Part shown: positions 27,643 to 50,591 of the stretch, piece by piece
Layout of the letters: every line of letters begins with the position of its first letter
Position numbering within the stretch: position 1 is the stretch's first letter
Assembly (NCBI GenBank): GCA_963774955.1
Contig: CAVZGV010000006.1
Location: forward strand, 90,855-154,854
Reading direction: 5' to 3'
DNA length: 64,000 bases
Source of the DNA: Candidatus Falkowbacteria bacterium
Lineage (GTDB): Bacteria > Patescibacteriota > Patescibacteriia > CAIXNZ01
Made by a program: the position numbers and the translations under genes
Notes under the pieces: model-generated
What the model was told of the DNA's origin: nothing
Databases searched by the model: none
The model's input: the letters and a program-made list of their open reading frames with translations, nothing else

Positions 27643-28146
27643 TCAACCATTCAGATTGTCCAACTCCTCTCGAAATGCCCAATATAGTGGTTCATCCTTG
27701 AAAGAATTCCTGAGAATAGATGACCACATCATTGTTGCCTCCAAAGGAGCAATATGGCACATATAAGCGATTAATTTAGCACGATTAATTACCAATTGCT
27801 TATAAATTGCCATATTAATGGCTTCAGAATTCGCTTGTGATCTCAAAATCATGGTTAAAATTACTGCAGTTACCGCTATTCTGTCGTCTTCAGTAGCTGG
27901 TGAAGGTAAAATGGTATAGGCCCTAAGCAAGGCCATCTCCATGGTGAAAAAATGTTCACCGTCTCCGCCCATGATCATATTGGCATGTTCCTGCAAATCA
28001 ACAGGACTGAGCTTATAACGTCTGTACAATCTTGTAAAAATTGGGGCGAGATTTTTTTGTGCGTAAAACACTTTTTTCATCATCTGACGATATATAATCT
28101 CCGCGATTATTATTCCGCCGAAAATAATGATTGCCCTAAACAGCAT
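27643..28146 (-). CDS. hypothetical membrane-anchored protein, paralog A of a duplicated cassette
   Basis: N-terminal TM. The C-terminal region (LIAYMCHIAPLEATMMWSSILRNSFKDEPLYWAFREELDNL) is paralogous to the 29084..29602 product (LIARILVMTNSYNVRLWNSYIDSTFKDPQLSADIRKEF). Confidence 0.5.
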   Translation of the reverse strand: MLFRAIIIFGGIIIAEIIYRQMMKKVFYAQKNLAPIFTRLYRRYKLSPVDLQEHANMIMGGDGEHFFTMEMALLRAYTILPSPATEDDRIAVTAVILTMILRSQANSEAINMAIYKQLVINRAKLIAYMCHIAPLEATMMWSSILRNSFKDEPLYWAFREELDNLNG

Positions 28147-28255: not shown

Positions 28256-28981
28256 TTATTTCATCACTCTTGCTTTGTTTTGCATAAGTCTGAGGATAAA
28301 TTTGGTTAATCTCTCAAACCAATAGCTGCTCAAAAACAAGAGGACAAAGCATCCTAGCCCCAAGGCTGAACCGAAGAAGAATTGCAAATGAAGGAAAACT
28401 ATGGCTACTCCTGCAAGCGGTAATAACATAAGCAGGTAAAACAAAACCTTTAGTAAGGGCCACGGAAGCTTGGTATCGACTACAAGTTTAATGCCAAATT
28501 TTTCCCGCAAATTTTGAATCAACATTCCCTGCAAAGGTTCAGGGGAATTAAAAGCTAAGTCTGGATTTTGGCAGCAGATCACCAAATGCAGACTCAGCAA
28601 ATCTAGGGCTGTTTGATCCCTGTGTGCCATTAAGGGCAAAACTTCGTTTATCAGCTTGCTCCATAAAGATTTATTGACGTAGATCAGAATGTCTATGACT
28701 GAAATTGCATACTCGATAGGCAGAGCATACAATTTTTCTAAAATGACTTGGAGGTCAGAAATTAGAAATATTTCGCCTTCTTCGAGTTTAGGAGCCAGCT
28801 CCCTCGCGTACCTCCACCGATCTCCATAGACGCTCTCGTGTTTTTTAGCCTCAGCCAAAACCCTGTTTCTGATAATATAATACGGCTTAAGAGTTACCAG
28901 CGCGTATATATATTCCAGTGGAGTGAATTTTGGCAGTTCCTCAGAGAAACGAAAAAGTTCCGCAAAAATCTTTCCCAGCAT
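28256..28981 (-). CDS. hypothetical protein with C-terminal TM helices
   Basis: 241 aa with a hydrophobic C-terminal third. Flanked on both sides by the duplicated intergenic module. Confidence 0.45.
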   Translation of the reverse strand: MLGKIFAELFRFSEELPKFTPLEYIYALVTLKPYYIIRNRVLAEAKKHESVYGDRWRYARELAPKLEEGEIFLISDLQVILEKLYALPIEYAISVIDILIYVNKSLWSKLINEVLPLMAHRDQTALDLLSLHLVICCQNPDLAFNSPEPLQGMLIQNLREKFGIKLVVDTKLPWPLLKVLFYLLMLLPLAGVAIVFLHLQFFFGSALGLGCFVLLFLSSYWFERLTKFILRLMQNKARVMK

Positions 28982-29083: not shown

Positions 29084-29602
29084 TTACTTCTGCAATTGCA
29101 AGGCGAATTCTTTCCTGATATCCGCACTCAATTGTGGATCCTTGAACGTAGAATCGATATAGGAATTCCACAACCTTACATTATAAGAATTGGTCATAAC
29201 CAAAATTCTGGCAATAAGCCTTGCCTTATCAATTTGCTGTTGTTTATAGATTGCTTTCAGCAAAACTGCAGCAATATTTTTTTTATACAGCAATAAAACA
29301 TGTAGAAGCAAGGCGGCCATAGCCAGCATTGAGTCCTCATCTTCTTTTTGGCAAACGAAAGTAACTATTTTCTCTACCACTGCCTCAGCTTGATTTGCCT
29401 GCCCTTCATACTCTTTCCAGCCAGAAATAGCATATTGGTGTATTTGAGGCAGATCCATTCCATAAGATTCAGTCTCGGCAAATAGCCTTTTAAGATGCTT
29501 AATCCCTTGCTGCTCTTGTTTTTTGATACTAATCTTTATGAAAAGAGCTAGAACCAACAACCCCAGACAGACGCCTCCGACAATAAAAGCCATAGTAATC
29601 AT
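29084..29602 (-). CDS. hypothetical membrane-anchored protein, paralog B
   Basis: Same architecture as 27643..28146. Confidence 0.5.
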   Translation of the reverse strand: MITMAFIVGGVCLGLLVLALFIKISIKKQEQQGIKHLKRLFAETESYGMDLPQIHQYAISGWKEYEGQANQAEAVVEKIVTFVCQKEDEDSMLAMAALLLHVLLLYKKNIAAVLLKAIYKQQQIDKARLIARILVMTNSYNVRLWNSYIDSTFKDPQLSADIRKEFALQLQK

Positions 29603-29735: not shown

Positions 29736-30587
29736 TCACAATCTCGAAACAATTTGAGCCAGTAGAAAACCCAAAAGTGTCCCCAATACTATCGGAGGCA
29801 AACCTGGCGTTGGGTGTCTTTCCTTTTGAGTAATAAAAATTATATACAAAAATATAAAACCCAAAATTGCGCCCAACCCTGTAATCAGACTGGTCAACAA
29901 ACTAATTTGCAGGCAGGAAACCACAAAAATGGCCGGGATGGCCAGATCGCCGGTGCCTAAGAACATAAATTCAGTTTCCGGACTGACAGTCTTTAATTTT
30001 AAAAATAAACCATGGTATTTTTGAGGAATAATGATGGTAAAATACACTTTAGATTCAGCCAGACCGTGAAACATCGTAACCATATGTTTGGTTTTATATA
30101 CCGCCCAATAATCATAAACTGCCAAAAACAAGAGAATGAAGATAGCGGCGCTGGGAGAAATATTAAATCCAAAAATCACGGCAATTGCTGCCAGAGAAAA
30201 AATAATTAAAATATTGTGAATCAGCACATTTTTATAAATCAGCCAATACAATAACAATATAGCCAGCCAGACTAAATTGTAAGGATAAACAAAATAAGCC
30301 TGGCCAAAAAGCCAGAGGCCTTCCAAAATCGCCAGATAAAATAAAACTTTAACCAGCCAGGACTTTTTTATGTATTTTAAAATCAAAAACAAAATTAAAG
30401 AGGCCAGAAGGAATGTAATGATAAATTCCCAGGCTGCCCAGCCATTCGCCCTTGTCTGAACTGACATTGCCGGTACCAATTGGCCTAAATTCAAAGCCAC
30501 GCCAATGGCCAAAAACATAGTCAAGGCATAGCAAAAAAGTTCAAATATAAAACTGAAATTTAAAAAATGTCGCCAGGTTAATTTCAT
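29736..30587 (-). CDS. presenilin/signal-peptide-peptidase-like (A22 family) intramembrane aspartyl protease homolog
   Basis: Polytopic membrane protein with FLAVYDYW (YD motif), MFLGTGDLAIPAIF (cf. SPP GLGDIVIPGIF, the GxGD motif) and a C-terminal PGLPP (PAL-like). Confidence 0.5.
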   Translation of the reverse strand: MKLTWRHFLNFSFIFELFCYALTMFLAIGVALNLGQLVPAMSVQTRANGWAAWEFIITFLLASLILFLILKYIKKSWLVKVLFYLAILEGLWLFGQAYFVYPYNLVWLAILLLYWLIYKNVLIHNILIIFSLAAIAVIFGFNISPSAAIFILLFLAVYDYWAVYKTKHMVTMFHGLAESKVYFTIIIPQKYHGLFLKLKTVSPETEFMFLGTGDLAIPAIFVVSCLQISLLTSLITGLGAILGFIFLYIIFITQKERHPTPGLPPIVLGTLLGFLLAQIVSRL

Positions 30588-30630
30588 ATCTTAATTATAA
30601 CAAATAATAAAAAAATGATATAATATAAAT

Positions 30631-31410
30631 ATGAATTTAATTACTGAAGAAAAAGAAAAATTTTCATATATCCCCTATATTATTTTTACTCTAGTTTTAG
30701 TTACAACCACTACGCTGGCTGCCTTTGTTTTGGCGGATAATGCTGATAAACTCATGGATTCCGACAATGACGGGCTTAGCGATTATGCTGAAAATAATAT
30801 TTATTATACGGCCTGGGACAATCCCGATACTGATAATGACGGCATTAATGACGGTCTGGAAGTAAAAAACGGTTATTCGCCCAAACAACCGAAACTAAAG
30901 ATGGACAAGGTTGATTCCGATGGTGATGGTCTTAATGATGAATGGGAAATAAGACTTGGTTCAGATTTAATGAAAAAAGATACCGATAATGACGGCTATT
31001 TCGATGGCACCGAAGTCATGAATAATTTTTCGCCTACAAGTCCTAAAACTAATAAAATTGAAAAGCGAATAGAGGTAAGTACAAAAACCTTGCGCTTAAG
31101 TTTTTATTTCGGTGATATTTTACTGGATAATTATCCTGTTTCCACCGGTAGAATAACGACGCCTACTCCTTTGGGCGAATTTTCCATTATTGCCAAATAT
31201 CCTCTGAAAAATTATAACAATCTGCCCAATACCAAATGGAACATGCATTTTGCCACAGTCAAAGGCCTAAGATATTATATCCACGGCGCTTATTGGCATA
31301 ATAATTTCGGGTTGGCCACTGTTTCCGGCGGCTGTGTTAATCTGCGTTATGAAGATGTGGAGAATCTGTATAACTTCACTCCAATAGGCACCAAAGTAAT
31401 TGTGGAATAA
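30631..31410 (+). CDS. L,D-transpeptidase (YkuD domain) with N-terminal thrombospondin type-3-like Ca-binding repeats
   Basis: Four DxDxDG-like repeats (DSDNDGLSDYAE, DTDNDGINDGLE, DSDGDGLNDEWE, DTDNDGYFDGTE). Catalytic region HGAYWHNNFGLATVSGGCVNL (cf. H...SHGC). Confidence 0.7.
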   Translation: MNLITEEKEKFSYIPYIIFTLVLVTTTTLAAFVLADNADKLMDSDNDGLSDYAENNIYYTAWDNPDTDNDGINDGLEVKNGYSPKQPKLKMDKVDSDGDGLNDEWEIRLGSDLMKKDTDNDGYFDGTEVMNNFSPTSPKTNKIEKRIEVSTKTLRLSFYFGDILLDNYPVSTGRITTPTPLGEFSIIAKYPLKNYNNLPNTKWNMHFATVKGLRYYIHGAYWHNNFGLATVSGGCVNLRYEDVENLYNFTPIGTKVIVE

Positions 31411-35000: not shown

Positions 35001-35357
35001 TTATTTAACCGAGCGAATCCACGCATTTAACATTTTACCTGCTTCATTCGCTAATCCAATTGCTTTATTATAATTTTCTTTTAGTAGATAGTTTAAATCG
35101 AAACTTAACAACAATTGGTATTTCAATTCCTCCAAAGAACCCATTGAGTATGAATAAAATACAAATTTATCTTTTCCCCTACGTCTAAATCCTTCGGAAA
35201 TATTTGACGGTACAGACACCGCAGCTCTTCTCATTTGTGAAACCAAGCCAAATTGTTCATCCTTAGGAAATTCCATAGTTATTTTATATACCAGTAAGGT
35301 TAACTCGTGCGCCCGTTGCCAAACTCTTAAATTTTGAATTGAGTTTAAATCAGTCAT
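35001..35357 (-). CDS. four-helix-bundle protein (family commonly found in 23S rRNA intervening sequences)
   Basis: 118 aa: LRVWQRAHELTLLVYKITMEFPKDEQFGLVSQMRRAAVSVPSNISEGF, typical of the four-helix-bundle / 'S23 ribosomal' family. Confidence 0.7.
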   Translation of the reverse strand: MTDLNSIQNLRVWQRAHELTLLVYKITMEFPKDEQFGLVSQMRRAAVSVPSNISEGFRRRGKDKFVFYSYSMGSLEELKYQLLLSFDLNYLLKENYNKAIGLANEAGKMLNAWIRSVK

Positions 35358-36941: not shown

Positions 36942-37998
36942 GGGTATAAGGGGTCCAAACTGGTTGGTGAATTAATGATTTTTGAAATGAATATACCAGC
37001 TAAAGTAATTGTTTCTGTTATCTTTGCTTAATCCTGAATGCTGGCGATACAATCTTTTTAAACGAGAAAAATATCCTTCAAGTTTATTCGTTGATTTGGC
37101 GATATTCGGATTATCTAAATAATGGAACATGTCGGGCAAGGCATGAATTACTAAGCTTCTAGTTCTTTGCAAATCACTAAAGACTTTGTGGTTACAGTCG
37201 AGTCTTGAAACCGCTTTGCCGAATTTTCTTTCCCACTTATGAAAATCTGAAATAAATTTATGTTTTTCCGGATAATTGTTAATGTTTGTTACCGCCAGTA
37301 ATATCTTGCGTAATTGTATCGATGGCTCCAGTTTAGGACGCATTCTTAACCAAGATAATCCCTGCCTCTGGATATGAACGATACAGCGCTGTATTACGAT
37401 ATTCGGCCATGCGTCCTTTAAGGCTCTAATTACGCTAGTATTACCGTCAATTGTAATGGCTGTAGGCTTGATTCCTTTATCTGACAGCTCCTTGAACAGC
37501 TCAAGGGCGGCAAAGTAATTTTCACGCCTTAAATACCTATTTGTGATGATTTGGCCATTGGCATTATTCATTGCCAGCATTAAGCAATTCATGCGGTGGA
37601 AATATGTACCATCAAAAAGCAGATATTTTATTCCGGTTTGTACGTTTAAAGGGCTCGGTAATTTTGCGAGCCAATAACTGATTATTCCCTTAATTGTTTT
37701 CCTGCTGTGGTGGCTAATTCCCGAAATTTGCCTGACTGAATATCCTTCGGCTATCCATAATTTAAACCATTTAAGTTGGCGGTTCAATTTATTCTTTGCA
37801 TTGCGGAAAACAAACAGTCGATTGCACTTCCCGCACTTGAATCTTTGCCGTCCGCAATCATTTTGGCCATAAAAAATTACATTATTAGAGGAGCAATCTG
37901 GACAAGTTTTTTTTCATAATATTGAACCAGTTTAATATTAAGTATCAATTTTAATCTAACCTTAACAGAAATTTTGTCTTTTCACCAACCAGTTTGGG
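36942..37998 (-). mobile_element. IS1595-family-like insertion sequence (1057 bp)
   Basis: 29-bp imperfect terminal inverted repeats (GGTATAAGGGGTCCAAACTGGTTGGTGAA at 36942-36970; reverse complement of 37970-37998 is GGTAAATGGTACCCAAACTGGTTGGTGAA). Flanking 7-bp direct repeat CAAAGGG (36935-36941 and 37999-38005). Single transposase gene inside. Confidence 0.85.
36972..37916 (-). pseudogene. IS transposase: N-terminal zinc ribbon plus DDE domain, with a frame change in an A8 run
   Basis: ATG at 37916, then A8 (37906-37913). Frame +1 continues KKTCPDCSSNNVIFYGQNDCGRQRFKCGKCNRLFVF (IS1/IS1595-type zinc finger) in frame with the 271-aa ORF. C-terminus NKLEGYFSRLKRLYRQHSGLSKDNRNNYFSWYIHFKN resembles the IS1595 DDE tail (N.xEG.wS.LKR...G.yH..S...L..Y..Ef.fryN). 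Confidence 0.8.
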
Positions 37999-39972: not shown

Positions 39973-40201
39973 TATATTATACCAAATCCTTGCCTTTTCC
40001 CCTACTTTATATTCAGGCAGGCTTCTTGTAGTAATAATTGACAATTGCATTAAAATGTGTTATGATTAGGGGAAATAGTTAATTTGAGCAAGATTTTAAA
40101 ATAGAGAAAGTTGTTTTTCCACTAGAATTACAGACAAAGTCATTGAATAGCGCATATGAGCGCCAATCAGCAAAACCTCGAAAAAGCCAATTGAAAGGAG
40201 C

Positions 40202-40813
40202 TTGAGAATGAATACCGCGGAAGATACGATGAAAAAGCTGGACAGACTGCTTGAAGATACCCTGCCTGATGATTGTACGGCAAGGGGTATAGGGGCTTCC
40301 ATTATTGTTAATGAGTGCCTAGACGCTTTCTTGCAAGAAAAAGGCTGGGCTCGTGATAGCATGGGAGCAGTGACCCTGTTCGCTTCAATCATCAACCAGG
40401 GCGGGTGGAAAATCCCGAAACACATTCATGATCGAGTCTGTCGTTGTCAGCAACAGCGTCAACCTAGGACCCGCGAGCAGATCATGGCGCCGATGTGGTC
40501 TCTAATCGAAGAGTGGGGTCTCCCGACCAAGGAAGAGCCGAAAACCGAAAACGGCGTTACCTATTACACGGAAGCCGCCGGAAGCAGGAAAACCCCATTA
40601 ATCGAGATCAAGTTTTTCAAAGGTGGACAGGCGTATCACCAGGCAAAATACAATGGTATGGCCACTTTTTATCCGGAAGAAGGAACCTGGCATACGTACG
40701 TCTCCTATCCGGATCCAACGGATGAAAATTACCGCAAGGGAGATTATCTGCCTTCAACCAAAGATCGTGAAGAAGCCATTCGGATCGTTCTCGAAGCGGT
40801 CCAAAAAATGTAA
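40202..40813 (+). CDS. hypothetical protein (GC-rich islet)
   Basis: 203 aa. Local GC is clearly elevated. Hairpin terminator at 40823-40853. Confidence 0.5.
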   Translation: MRMNTAEDTMKKLDRLLEDTLPDDCTARGIGASIIVNECLDAFLQEKGWARDSMGAVTLFASIINQGGWKIPKHIHDRVCRCQQQRQPRTREQIMAPMWSLIEEWGLPTKEEPKTENGVTYYTEAAGSRKTPLIEIKFFKGGQAYHQAKYNGMATFYPEEGTWHTYVSYPDPTDENYRKGDYLPSTKDREEAIRIVLEAVQKM

Positions 40814-41011
40814 ACAACAAGGGTGTCTGTCAGGCGACAGGCACCCTTTTCAATTTTTAATATTATTAAGGCATAAAGCGTGATTGAATAATAAGATGGT
40901 GAGTTTAGAATTCCGTGCTGGCTTGACAAAAATCAAATAAATTGATATATTTAATAGTCCAAAAAAGGATGTAATTTTTAAATTCAAAACTGAAACGAGG
41001 AGGAGAAAAAA

Positions 41012-41875
41012 ATGTCAAAATCGGCAACGGTTTACACTCTTATGGCTGCATTGCGCGAGGCCGAGGATATCCTGGGTAAAGGCAGAAAGTGGCAGGCGAA
41101 AAATCCTATGCAAGCCAAGCTGATCACTGACTTTTTGAAGTACATCAGTGAAGCCGGCCAGATCAAGGAAATTGAGAGCATTGCCTCGCGTGACGCCAAA
41201 AAGATCAATGACTTTCTGGCTCAGCGCGGCTTTTCCATCCAGCTCAATCCCTTTGCTCCGACTGAATTCGGAGTGGCGGCCGTGCTGGACCTGCTGGTCA
41301 AATGGTTTCAACCCGGCAAAAAGATCCAGATCACGACCCCGAACAACCAAAAATATCCGGGTGTGCATCTGAAGCAGGGCGTGCAGTTTTTCAATGTGAA
41401 CGGTGACATGAACAAGCCCGTCGCCAAAATCAGAACCCAAAGCGACGACGAAGTCTTTATGACCATGATCGACCAGGTACCGGACGGTCTGGACCTGCTC
41501 GAATTCGCCGCCACCTTGGTAGCTCAGCTCCAGTACGGCAGAGAGGAATACGAGGGCCTGCATTTCCCCATGGTTGATTTCAAAAACCAGCCGGACATTT
41601 CCTGGCTCTTGGGCATGGCTACGACTGACAGCTCGGGCGTACCGGCTTGGATCTCCCAAGCCAAACAGGAAACCAAGTTGCGCATGAATGAGATCGGCGC
41701 CAGAGTCCAGGATGCTGTGGCCATGGCTACCATGAGATGTGCAATGATGCCGAAACAACCCCTGATCATCAATAAGCCTTTCTTGTGCATCTTCACCAGA
41801 CCGGGCCTGACCTTCCCACTGGCCGTGTTCTTTCTGGATCCCGACTGCTGGAAAAACCCGGGCAGCCTGGATTAA
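41012..41875 (+). CDS. serpin-like protein (short; C-terminal serpin motifs)
   Basis: GGAGGAG RBS. C-terminus KLRMNEIGARVQDAVAMATMRCAMMPKQPLIINKPFLCIFTRPGLTFPLAVFFLDP (cf. serpin hinge EEGTEAAAAT and FNKPFVFLMIE...SPLFMGKVVNP). LHFPMVDFKNQPDISWLLGM resembles serpin LPKFK...LGI. Only 287 aa, shorter than any canonical serpin. Confidence 0.4.
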   Translation: MSKSATVYTLMAALREAEDILGKGRKWQAKNPMQAKLITDFLKYISEAGQIKEIESIASRDAKKINDFLAQRGFSIQLNPFAPTEFGVAAVLDLLVKWFQPGKKIQITTPNNQKYPGVHLKQGVQFFNVNGDMNKPVAKIRTQSDDEVFMTMIDQVPDGLDLLEFAATLVAQLQYGREEYEGLHFPMVDFKNQPDISWLLGMATTDSSGVPAWISQAKQETKLRMNEIGARVQDAVAMATMRCAMMPKQPLIINKPFLCIFTRPGLTFPLAVFFLDPDCWKNPGSLD

Positions 41876-41942
41876 AAGTCAAAGCTTAAAAAGCTGACCC
41901 CAAAATAAACCCCAAAGGGCCCCACATCGTGGCGGCCCTTTT

Positions 41943-42824
41943 TTAATTCTCAGTTTTTAATTTATCCAGCAATTTAACTATATTCAATTCCGGATAGATG
42001 CTTATACGCTTTAAAGCCAATAAATCATCCGGATCCTGCCAGGCATCCTGATCATAGGTTAACCCGGCTTGATAACCGGCTTGTCCGGCTAATTCCTTTA
42101 TCTGGTCATTATATAAACCAAAAGGATAGCAGATCACGGTAATATCCTTACCCAATAAATCCGCCAGCATTTTTTTACTGTCTGTCAGTTCCTTAAGGGC
42201 TTCAGCACTGCTGATTTTGGTCAGCTTGGGATGCCAGACTGTATGCGAGCCGATTTCCACTAAACCGCTTTCAGCCAGTTCAATTATCTGGTCCTTGGAT
42301 AAATAATTTGATCCGCCCACGCCGGTCATGATATATATTGAGGTCTTAATATTGTATTTTTGCAAAATCGGCCAAGCCTGGGTATAAAAATCCTCATTGC
42401 CGTCATCAAAAGTAATAGCCATTATTTTTTCCTGAGGCAATTGCTTCTTAGACAAATAATCGACAACTTCGCTGACAAAAAACGGGCGGTAATCATTGTC
42501 TAATAAATCCTTTAAAATCTGCTCAAATTTCAGCGGTTCAATAAAATAACTTCTGGTAATTTTGTCGGCATTAGCGGGTGCAGTGCCGATATGATGAAAA
42601 TCCAAAATCGGCACAAAAGCCCTTTCTCCAACCTTGAGTTGGTAATACCCTTTTTTCCCCTCTTGCCCATTTTCCCCTTCTTGCTCTTCAATATTTTCCC
42701 GATTCCAAACATCATCCGCAGGCTTTGACCGCAAATCAACAAACAAATGGTCAATCAAAATAATGACCGCCACCACTAAAATTGCGATTAAAATATCAAT
42801 AGCTAATTGGTGTCTTTTCTCCAT
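41943..42824 (-). CDS. polysaccharide deacetylase (NodB/CE4 domain) with N-terminal TM anchor
   Basis: MAITFDDGNEDFYTQAWPILQKYNIKTSIYIMTG and HTVWHP (NodB motifs). Start trimmed to MEKRHQLAIDIL...; the longer ORF extension overlaps the neighbouring GC-rich gene. Confidence 0.7.
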   Translation of the reverse strand: MEKRHQLAIDILIAILVVAVIILIDHLFVDLRSKPADDVWNRENIEEQEGENGQEGKKGYYQLKVGERAFVPILDFHHIGTAPANADKITRSYFIEPLKFEQILKDLLDNDYRPFFVSEVVDYLSKKQLPQEKIMAITFDDGNEDFYTQAWPILQKYNIKTSIYIMTGVGGSNYLSKDQIIELAESGLVEIGSHTVWHPKLTKISSAEALKELTDSKKMLADLLGKDITVICYPFGLYNDQIKELAGQAGYQAGLTYDQDAWQDPDDLLALKRISIYPELNIVKLLDKLKTEN

Positions 42825-47326: not shown

Positions 47327-48055
47327 TTAGGAAAAAAATCCAGATTTAGACGCTTCGGGGCAGATGATTTTATAAATTTCACTGCTCTCTTTTTTAAGGA
47401 TGTTCAGAATTTCAACCTCCTTATCCTTGTGGTTTGCCAGGATTTCAGTAGCAATCCGTTTAACGTCATCATTATGGATGCCTCGTGCTGTTCTAGTTTC
47501 AAATACTTCACAGCCATAAACTCGAGCTTTATTAAAACTATAGGTTTCGAGATATGACTCTGTTTTTACCAAAGTAGCTAAGGCCATAGCCACATATCGG
47601 GGAGATACGCTGGGATCTTTGGCTTTTGCCTGGACTTGTTCGTAAAATCCTTCCAATTCGGGATTAAGAGCTATTTCCCAGGTCCTTAGTTGGGAAAAAT
47701 TTAGCGGAGTATCTTCTCCTCTTTCCAGTTTTCTCAGATTAGCAATCAATTCCCTACAATATTGATCGGAATCGAGTTTTCTACCGATGGCTTCTTTAAG
47801 TTCTCTTCGGATAAAAAGAACCAAGACGATTAAAGAAGCTACCAGAGAAATTATTAAGGTTATGACCGCAAAATCTTTTCTGGATAAAGCGGTGTGCCAA
47901 AATATTGTGTACCCAAAATAAACTAAGTTTGGCACACCTAAAATCCACCAAATGCAGGATAAAACTTGAATATCAAAATTCTCGCGACGACGGTCAAGAA
48001 ACATTGAAATAATCTCATCCATTTTCCAAACCCAATCAATCTTTTTTACGCTCAT
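47327..48055 (-). CDS. hypothetical membrane protein
   Basis: 242 aa with two N-terminal TM helices and a hairpin terminator directly after the stop (acagcctat...ataggctgt). Confidence 0.45.
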   Translation of the reverse strand: MSVKKIDWVWKMDEIISMFLDRRRENFDIQVLSCIWWILGVPNLVYFGYTIFWHTALSRKDFAVITLIISLVASLIVLVLFIRRELKEAIGRKLDSDQYCRELIANLRKLERGEDTPLNFSQLRTWEIALNPELEGFYEQVQAKAKDPSVSPRYVAMALATLVKTESYLETYSFNKARVYGCEVFETRTARGIHNDDVKRIATEILANHKDKEVEILNILKKESSEIYKIICPEASKSGFFS

Positions 48056-48215
48056 TTTTCTCCTCCTTGTTGAGCGGTTAGTTTTAAAAACCAGTTCTTT
48101 TTATAACTTAACACTATCGTTTGAAGATGTCAAAATATCCATTAAATTACGAGGCAATCTCCTTATAACTAAGGTTCTAAACCTTACTGTTCAGCCAAAT
48201 TTAAAAGCAGTGGCG

Positions 48216-50112
48216 TTAACCACTGCTTTTAAAGTTAGTTTTTTCAGGTTTTAAATTTCCAAACCCCTGATCTTGTGCCAAGGCCCTGAAGGTCGGCGAA
48301 ATCGCTGCCAACTCATCAAAACTACTGGCAATCGCTGTCACATGACCGCAGGAATCTCCGTTGGAATCGATCATGATGAATTTGTCGCAGATTCTTCTGA
48401 CCGTGTTCAAACGGTGAGTGACAATCAGTGCGCCTCTGTCTTTGGTCAACACTTTTGCCAGACCAGTCCTGAACCAGCTTCTCGGTGGTGGAATCTAGCG
48501 AGCTGGTCGCCTCGTCAATGATCATGAACTTCGGCGCTTTCATGACTGCGCAACCAATGCCCAGACGCTGGGATTGACCGCCGGAAAGTTTAATGCCGTT
48601 ACGACCGACTTTGGTGTCCAGACCTTCAGTCAACCTTTCGCCAAAATCAATCTGCAGCATTTTCATGGTTTGCCAGACCTGATCATCACTGATCTGCAGT
48701 TTGGCTGCATCAGGCAGGCCATAAAGCATGTTGTAGCGGATAGTGCCGTCAAGAATCTGCGCCTGCTGAGGCACATAGCCGATTAAAGACAGCCAATTTT
48801 GCAGATCCAAATCGCACAGATTTTGGCCGTTGATCCGGATCATGCCCTGACTCGGATCCATATAGCGCAGCAATAAACGCATGATCGTGGTTTTGCCCAC
48901 GCCACTGGAACCGATGAGAGCGACTTTTTCACCAGGAGCGATCTTGAAGGAAATCCGGGAAATAACCGATTTGGTCTGTTCAGCTTCCTTGTGCGGATAG
49001 CTGTAACCGACCGCGTCAAATTCCACTTCAATTGGCTGATCTGGCTCAATCTTTTTAGTTTGGGACGCATACTCAAGTCCTACCGGCAACGTCAGAGCTT
49101 CTTTCATGGCCAGGATGGACGGGGTGACGAAATTAATCTGATGTTCCAGATGTCCGATCCGCCACAGGTTATCGACTATTTGCCGACTCCAGCCAAACAA
49201 GGGATAAAGCAGCCCCAGGGCCATATGTCCATGATAAACCTGATACGCTCCCCAGCTGATTAATCCTAGCAGTAAACCGTAATCGACAAAACCGCGCCAG
49301 ATTACCTGGTAAATAAACCAGAGCCAAAAAGTCCTGTCCGGAACAATCGCCTCCTGAAACTTGTCACAGATGGTCGAAACTTCCTCGTCTTCCTTGGCAA
49401 AATTTTTCACCTTTTCAACGTTATCCAATCTTTCAACCAGATAACGATGAAGGTCACGCCATTTTTTATCAATCGGCAGGCAGACCTGTAAAACTTTCCG
49501 GTTTAAAACCAGACTCCAGGTCAGATGAATGGCCAGCATAACCGTGACGATCAAACCGGCATAGGGACTTAGAAACCATAAGGCGCCAAAGGGTAAAAAC
49601 AGCATCAAGATTGCTTCCACGCCTTCAAACAGCATCATGGCTTCCAGCTGAAAAACTCTTTCCCGGCCCTTTTTGATATTGGCTTCATTAAGCTGGTTAT
49701 GCTCGTCAATATGAGTGCCCAATGATTTTTCGAAAAAAAGTTCGGCCGTGCGCTTATCCAGCTGGCCAATATTTTCCCCGAAAAGATACTCCCGGGCCCG
49801 CATGCTGATCAGCTGGATCAGTTGACTGACAATAACGGTGACTGCATAAAGGCAGATGCCCAAGATGACCAGATTAGCATTCATGGCCTTGGGGTTTAAA
49901 CCATTGAAAACGTAACTTAACGTCCAGGGACCGACAACCATGACGGCGCTGCCAATGGCTTTGACAATTGCCATTTTCTTGGCATACTTTTTCCCCGCAG
50001 GGTTGATCAATTCTTGCCAAACCCAGGTGAACATCGCCTTCATAGCGCGGACTTCTTTGAAATAGTCCCGCAAATTTGTGGCTGCCGCACGATCCAGTTC
50101 TACGTCTTTCAT
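48216..50112 (-). pseudogene. fused TMD-NBD ABC exporter (MsbA-like), frame-disrupted near 48455-48475
   Basis: Walker A GSSGVGKTT, signature LSGGQSQR and Walker B FMIIDEATSSLD in one frame. The D-loop/H-loop tail ALIVTHRLNTVRRICDKFIMIDSNG is in the +1 frame (ORF 48216..48452). RBS gggaggaaaaaATG at 50112. Confidence 0.7.
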
Positions 50113-50591
50113 TTTTTCCTCCCTTTGCCCGCCAAAGCCTTGTGCGAAGGCGGGCTTTTCAAGGTACAACCTAGTTTGCTTTAAATCAGGATAAACAAAG
50201 ACTCTCTTAGCCTGATTTGGCCGAGAGAGTCTTTAACAATATATTTAAACCTAATTTTAGCTTTAAAAATATTATCCGCACAAAAAACTCCTATGGCCAT
50301 ATTTAACCCAAGCCCCGCCAAAAACTGGTGTTACTGTATAAAAAGTTAAATTTTTATGACAATTAAACATAATATTATTGGATTTAAATCTTAAGAATTC
50401 ATTTCACTATAACATATTAACAAGAATATGTCAAGTAAGCGCTGAAAACTTATTACTTAATATAAGACGGCTAAACATTTTAAATATTACACTTCAAATC
50501 GTCCTTAGCCGTTGACAAAAATAAATTTTAGTGTTAAAATTGCATCAAGCTTTAAACATCAAATCGTAAGACACTTTCAAGGAGGACAAAA

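Follow-up and report, generated by a model that had tools for sequence, protein, structure and literature searches.

The 64,000-nucleotide stretch of Candidatus Falkowbacteria DNA analysed here (the window) encodes a member of the presenilin family of intramembrane aspartyl proteases (MEROPS A22, Pfam PF06550, PSH-type). Judged by its sequence and by a structure model, this protein is very probably an active enzyme. The window is part of a bacterial chromosome with a GC content of ~38%; it carries the housekeeping genes for DnaE, GuaA, LexA, ThrRS, MiaA, a MiaB-like protein, FtsX and ThiI, together with five tRNAs. The protease gene, the features within it and its immediate neighbours are listed in Table 1.

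Family assignment and catalytic motifs

The open reading frame of the window protease begins with an ATG codon, which is considered the right start because homologs begin at the same methionine (MKL...). When its 283-aa product is compared with Pfam, the only family matched at E<=10 is PF06550, which Pfam names "Signal-peptide peptidase, presenilin aspartyl protease". The match scores 79.3 bits (E 4.6e-22; gathering score 23.9) and covers positions 25-282 of the 283-position profile. At the same threshold there is no match to PF04258 (Peptidase_A22B, the eukaryote-type SPP/SPPL family), which is present in relatives only as 'faint' precomputed matches, and Pfam gives no match to PF01080 (presenilin proper, A22A). 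Among solved structures, sequence search reaches only PSH (4HYC/4HYD/4HYG/4Y6K): PSH of Methanoculleus marisnigri (PDB 4HYC) is found with E 1.2e-17 in a single-sequence search and with E 2.4e-35 by a family profile of 42 homologs. Together with the fold matches described below, these results bear out the earlier note, which had proposed a homolog of the presenilin/signal peptide peptidase (SPP) type and had named an HMM search as a check.

Although PSH/MCMJR1 (from M. marisnigri JR1) belongs to the same Pfam family, it is just 26% identical to the window protease. It is also longer (301 vs 283 aa), and the window protease differs from it in having a bacterial host and shorter TM3-4 and TM7-8 connections. 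On NCBIfam NF041679, the archaeal PSH equivalog model, the window protease scores 91.3 bits, which is under the 125-bit cutoff, whereas PSH itself scores 353 bits. On this model, scores are 67-92 bits for CPR and DPANN homologs and 344-353 bits for PSHs of Methanomicrobia. Thus, the window protease and the characterised PSH fall into different subfamilies, and the former is not an equivalog of the latter.

The three motif strings that the earlier note had quoted, FLAVYDYW, FLGTGDLAIPAIF and PGLPP, are all present in the translation. The first contains Y158-D159, which aligns with Y161-D162 of PSH, and the second contains G211-T-G-D214, which aligns with G217-M-G-D220; the predicted catalytic residues D159 and D214 therefore align with PSH D162 and D220. 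The PAL-like motif that had been noticed near the C-terminus also holds up, as PGLPP (residues 261-265 of 283) aligns with AGLPP of PSH. PSH loses its activity on substitution D162A/N/E or D220A/N/E and works more slowly with G219A (PMC2947513). Within PF06550, Asp-dependent intramembrane proteolysis has been demonstrated solely for archaeal PSH (PMC2947513). In a set of 42 homologs of the window protease, with identity down to 25%, the invariant positions are G140, Y158, D159, A162, V163, M169, G211, G213, D214, P218, G243, L263 and P264; T166, H168 and P261 are conserved in at least 90%. The invariance of the two Asp residues, the flanking Gly and the PAL motif therefore argues, at the level of sequence, for an active enzyme.

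Table 1. Features of the protease locus, in coordinates of the window
Feature	Position	Strand	Basis or remarks
Presenilin-family (PF06550, PSH-type) intramembrane aspartyl protease gene, 283 aa	29736..30587	(-)	ORF, Pfam, PDB match, model
TM helix 6 (residues 145-166), bears YD motif	30090..30155	(-)	Model secondary structure (DSSP), hydrophobic segment
YD motif Y158-D159, predicted first catalytic Asp D159	30111..30116	(-)	Codons tat gat
TM6-TM7 loop (residues 167-206), predicted cytoplasmic	29970..30089	(-)	Model, conservation, Lys/Arg count
Beta-strand 207-211 and TM helix 7 (212-227), bears GxGD motif	29907..29969	(-)	Model
GxGD motif G211-T-G-D214, predicted second catalytic Asp D214	29946..29957	(-)	Codons ggc acc ggc gat
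PAL-type motif P261-G-L-P-P265, just before TM helix 9 (263-282)	29793..29807	(-)	Codons cca ggt ttg cct ccg
YkuD-type L,D-transpeptidase gene	30631..31410	(+)	N-terminal membrane anchor, three bacterial thrombospondin-type-3 (Ca-binding) repeats
Three small genes between protease and dnaE	29084..29602, 28256..28981, 27643..28146	(-)	No Pfam match

Structure model and membrane orientation

An AlphaFold2 model of the window protease, built on the 42-sequence alignment (mean pLDDT 90.7, pTM 0.88), contains nine TM helices. Helices 1-5 comprise residues 11-37, 52-72, 76-98, 103-118 and 121-142; helices 6-9 comprise residues 145-166, 212-227, 230-253 and 263-282. The YD motif lies in TM6, and the GxGD motif lies at the junction of strand 207-211 with the adjacent TM7, so the placement of the two motifs in consecutive helices, which the earlier note had wanted checked by topology prediction, is confirmed in the nine-helix model. 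That note had also named two findings that would count against it: a topology with the two Asp residues outside the membrane, or a match to an unrelated transporter family. Since YD is within helix 6 and GTGD opens helix 7, the former objection fails, and neither finding was seen in the model, in Pfam or in Foldseek.

A Foldseek comparison of the model with the PDB returned PSH first, with the same nine-TM fold and a TM-score of 0.63-0.74, followed by human SPPL2a (9K92; E 7.9e-6) and then by presenilin-1 (PS1) in many gamma-secretase structures (for example, 6IYC chain B, with E 1.8e-4 and a TM-score of about 0.55-0.68). All 15 matches with E<=0.001 are PSH, SPPL2a or PS1, and matches beyond the presenilin family all have E >1. 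The fold is shared although identity is low, at 16% for human SPP/SPPL2a and ~15-17% for presenilin-1. The YD motif, the GxGD motif, the K/R-T-K-H-M sequence after TM6 and xGLPP of PSH all align with the window protease; presenilin-1 has the YD/GxGD/PAL logic in common with it, and the GxGD-xxxP stretch of SPP/SPPL2a resembles its own. Unlike presenilin-1, the window protease lacks a long cytoplasmic autoproteolysis loop. Its TM6-TM7 loop is modelled as a short helix (168-178) and strands 184-188 and 207-211. A conserved K-T-K-H-M-V motif is found at this loop, with T166, H168 and M169 invariant or nearly invariant, and Lys/Arg residues number 6 in the loop of the window protease and 7.7 on average in the family.

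Orientation was assessed by counting Lys+Arg in the loops of the 42 aligned sequences, using the model helices as boundaries. The side that includes the N-terminus and loops L2-3, L4-5, L6-7 and L8-9 has a mean of 15.5 such residues vs 2.0 on the opposite side, and the bias has the same sign in 42/42 sequences. Under the positive-inside rule, this bias predicts a cytoplasmic location for the N-terminus and the TM6-7 loop and an outside location for the C-terminus. Such an N-in/C-out arrangement with a cytoplasmic TM6-7 loop is the orientation of presenilin, and that of SPP is the opposite. The same rule predicts, then, that the window protease is oriented like human presenilin-1 and opposite to human SPP/SPPL2a. 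This bears on the likeness of the GxGD region to SPP that the earlier note had found striking: as a shared stretch it stands, but because PSH is the closest relative and the predicted orientation is that of presenilin, it is not read as signal-peptide-peptidase function.

Taken together, these features suggest how the window protease would work. It would be a stand-alone di-aspartyl protease that spans the membrane nine times. The TM helix of a substrate would enter it laterally and unwind near the cytoplasmic face. In presenilin-substrate complexes the unwound substrate pairs with beta-strands of the enzyme; by analogy, the unwound substrate of the window protease would probably dock on strands 184-188 and 207-211. 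D159, near the cytoplasmic end of TM6, would face D214, at the start of TM7, in a water-accessible cavity, and the pair would act as the general acid and base that hydrolyse a peptide bond inside another protein's membrane-spanning helix, with the PGLP motif before TM9 helping to shape the active site. Like PSH, which works without cofactors (PMC9282858), and unlike presenilin, the enzyme would be expected to work alone, with no need of partner subunits; human SPP/SPPL2a is also cofactor-free.

Distribution and genomic context

The earlier note had considered bacterial members of this family to be rare and essentially uncharacterised. The former view is wrong for the Patescibacteria/CPR. In a search of the family profile against 1.84 billion cluster representatives (clusters at 50% identity), 2040 clusters were found at E<=1e-3 and 492 at E<=1e-30. 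A species-level search, with one genome per GTDB species, found relatives encoded in at least 515 genomes, and the best 80 of these are almost all from Patescibacteria/CPR (Parcubacteria, Buchanan-, Uhr-, Yanofsky-, Nealson-, Staskawicz-, Azam- and Falkowbacteria as well as Paceibacteria), plus two DPANN archaea. Thus, the family is not rare within the CPR. The term "uncharacterised" still applies: no study of bacterial or CPR presenilin homologs was found in the full-text literature, a search that did not cover the 2021 survey by Raut, Glass and Lieberman (Proteins 89:232). Public databases do name such proteins; close relatives are called "presenilin family intramembrane aspartyl protease" by NCBI, and relatives are called "presenilin-like A22 family membrane protease" by JGI. 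A sequence identical to the window protease is present in NCBI/ENA, on a 294-kb contig, with no assigned protein name, and the nearest named relatives, at up to 78% identity, come from MAGs of Candidatus Parcubacteria, Buchananbacteria and Patescibacteria.

The two archaea among the best 80 genomes, an Undinarchaeota MAG (L067) and archaeon UBA543 (L064), are genuine archaea. At both loci (L064 3842-4750; L067 3959-4840) the protease gene is located within a shared block of genes for TBP, MCM, the protease, an OB-fold protein and aIF2beta. The DPANN homologs are 30-32% identical to the window protease, which places them about as near to it as homologs from other CPR classes (31-37%). Like the window protease they fall under the NF041679 cutoff (83-89 bits), but they differ from it in their archaeal gene context and in having IPALPP where it has TPGLPP. 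In a neighbour-joining tree rooted on Methanomicrobia, a crude tree without support values whose taxon sample is biased to CPR-like sequences, both DPANN sequences branch inside the CPR radiation. This nesting may reflect gene exchange between CPR and DPANN. Six further loci (L012, L014, L016, L019, L023 and L038) are TPA MAG records of an 'uncultured Gammaproteobacteria bacterium' with a CPR-type protein, and the first three of these (61-63% identity) share the CPR protease-dnaE neighbourhood as well. The 'Gammaproteobacteria' labels look like placeholders or errors.

In the window, the ykuD gene is divergent from the protease gene, from which it is separated by 43 bp (30588..30630). This intergenic region contains no Shine-Dalgarno sequence for the protease gene. 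A perfect TATAAT on the (-) strand (30599..30594) ends 6 nt ahead of the protease ATG, a spacing that would fit a leaderless protease mRNA. A generic promoter scan performed at chance level, with 14 sites vs 12.3 expected. On the 3' side of the protease gene, the three small genes and then dnaE follow on the same strand. A strong hairpin and T-run lie 3' of each small gene, and a strong GGAGG accompanies the gene for the 172-aa protein. Two of the products, of 172 and 167 aa, are paralogs that share 30% identity over 93 aa, and each has one N-terminal hydrophobic helix followed by Lys/Arg. From this layout, both probably have an N-out/C-in topology, leaving just a few residues as a stub outside. 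A presenilin-oriented protease could cut proteins of this topology, but any connection with the window protease is pure speculation. The 172-aa protein (unk172) has only 1-2 homologs among 5.8 billion proteins, and the small genes are missing from L003, whose protease is 61% identical; the idea that the three small genes encode conserved substrates was accordingly rejected and is no more than speculation.

Close relatives (53-78% identity) keep the order lexA, a 245-aa gene, ykuD, protease, zero to three small genes, dnaE. Adjoining lexA in the window is a 118-aa ORF (35001..35357, (-) strand); the 118-125-aa gene at the equivalent position in relatives is tagged 23S_rRNA_IVP/bAvd (four-helix-bundle), a tag that comes from the relatives alone. 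Elsewhere in the window, there is a fragment of a Mutator-family transposase (36972..37787, (-) strand), and GC content is raised to 46-47%, vs ~38%, at 40001..42000 and 48001..50000. The first patch contains two ORFs without a Pfam match, at 40202..40813 and at 41012..41875, and an antisense ORF overlaps the second of them; the other patch contains an ABC exporter (48322..50169). The transposase fragment and the two patches may be acquired DNA.

A wider survey took in 82 non-redundant loci: after ORF calling, three genes to either side of the protease gene were clustered, and neighbours were named by sequence reading or by Pfam tags from other loci. Several neighbours recur: an Elp3-like gene (at 21 loci), a 375-aa family (at 16 loci), archease, RtcB, a LOG-like gene, DnaE, YkuD and secY/adk. 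The ykuD-protease pairing occurs at 7/82 loci, all in the close clade, and a LOG-like gene and mgtC occur as neighbours among more distant relatives. At six loci (L009 5001-5825, L010, L028, L038, L050 and L085) from a clade centred on Uhrbacteria, the protease gene is flanked by secY and adk where the ribosomal-protein spc operon ends; at L009, L010 and L028 a soluble-looking ORF of 74-78 aa is present just upstream of the protease gene, after secY. A conserved operon partner or substrate was sought among these neighbours and rejected, as they form clade-specific synteny blocks of unrelated functions, none of which is family-wide in the 82 loci. This lack of a family-wide neighbour fits a cofactor-independent housekeeping enzyme. 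There was likewise no sign of partners like nicastrin, APH-1 or PEN-2, and by analogy with PSH, and given that no neighbour is conserved, cofactor independence should hold for the window protease.

Substrates, alternative roles and meaning

We know of no native substrate for archaeal PSH. For the window protease, the presenilin orientation makes the likely substrates N-out/C-in single-pass proteins with short outside stubs, and not signal peptides. The substrates of presenilin are type I proteins and those of SPP, whose orientation is opposite, are type II proteins; opposite enzyme topologies have been suggested as the reason (PMC2947513), a link that stems from eukaryotic enzymes and is applied here to a prokaryote protein. 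On balance, then, the predicted orientation favours action on N-out/C-in TM segments. The role would be to clear membrane stubs or to release cytoplasmic domains, rather than to degrade signal peptides, but this remains uncertain.

The protein could instead do the job of an SPP, clearing N-in/C-out signal peptides in place of SppA or RseP in a reduced genome. Pfam names PF06550 after SPP, an archaeal annotation review lists this family as a candidate signal peptide peptidase (PMC8305020), and the six loci from Uhrbacteria and relatives with the gene between secY and adk would fit a secretion-linked role. However, the secY neighbourhood occurs in just one clade of the tree and not in the window, PF04258 is unmatched, and all 42 homologs are predicted to be oriented opposite to SPP, the very difference suggested to explain the choice between type I and type II substrates. 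A role as SPP is therefore rather unlikely, although it deserves more weight than the two explanations that dispense with presenilin-type proteolysis. Eukaryotic presenilins have been proposed to have non-proteolytic roles too, and the window protease could be a catalytically inert scaffold, channel or leak pore; the invariance of both Asp residues, the flanking Gly and the PAL motif among homologs as distant as 25% identity makes this highly improbable. Least probable of all is that it is a GxGD protease of the A24 type, a type IV prepilin or preflagellin peptidase (PilD/FlaK); like these, it carries the GxGD signature and is a polytopic membrane protein. Its YD and PAL motifs and its nine-TM layout are presenilin features, and the Pfam result, with PF06550 alone, and the Foldseek result, with no A24 structure among the matches, refute an A24 identity.

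A bolder extension of the presenilin-type reading, which we consider improbable, is that CPR and DPANN share a distinct subfamily of stand-alone presenilin homologs, with exchange between the domains, that acts as a minimal 'gamma-secretase' cutting N-out/C-in proteins with short stubs. In this subfamily reading, exchange would be implied because the DPANN sequences lie inside the CPR radiation. Substrates might be, for example, the orphans encoded downstream in the window or remnants of C-terminal anchors. Cleavage would serve to free cytoplasmic domains or to clear the membrane in host cells that may be without other proteases for clearing stubs.

The kind of enzyme described here is already known, a homolog has been solved, and close relatives are already annotated correctly by public pipelines; the window protease adds no new type of system. 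To our knowledge, work on presenilin-type proteolysis has dealt almost wholly with eukaryotes and with one archaeal model enzyme. The window presents a well-conserved and, judging from sequence and model, probably active member of the family in a CPR bacterium, and the family occurs widely among bacteria of this reduced-genome group and has close counterparts in DPANN archaea. Its CPR members offer small enzymes, predicted to be cofactor-free, for mechanistic work. The relationship between CPR and DPANN and the presenilin-type orientation are the aspects of most value for follow-up, and the family raises the question of how membrane stubs are cleared, or used for signalling, in ultra-small cells.
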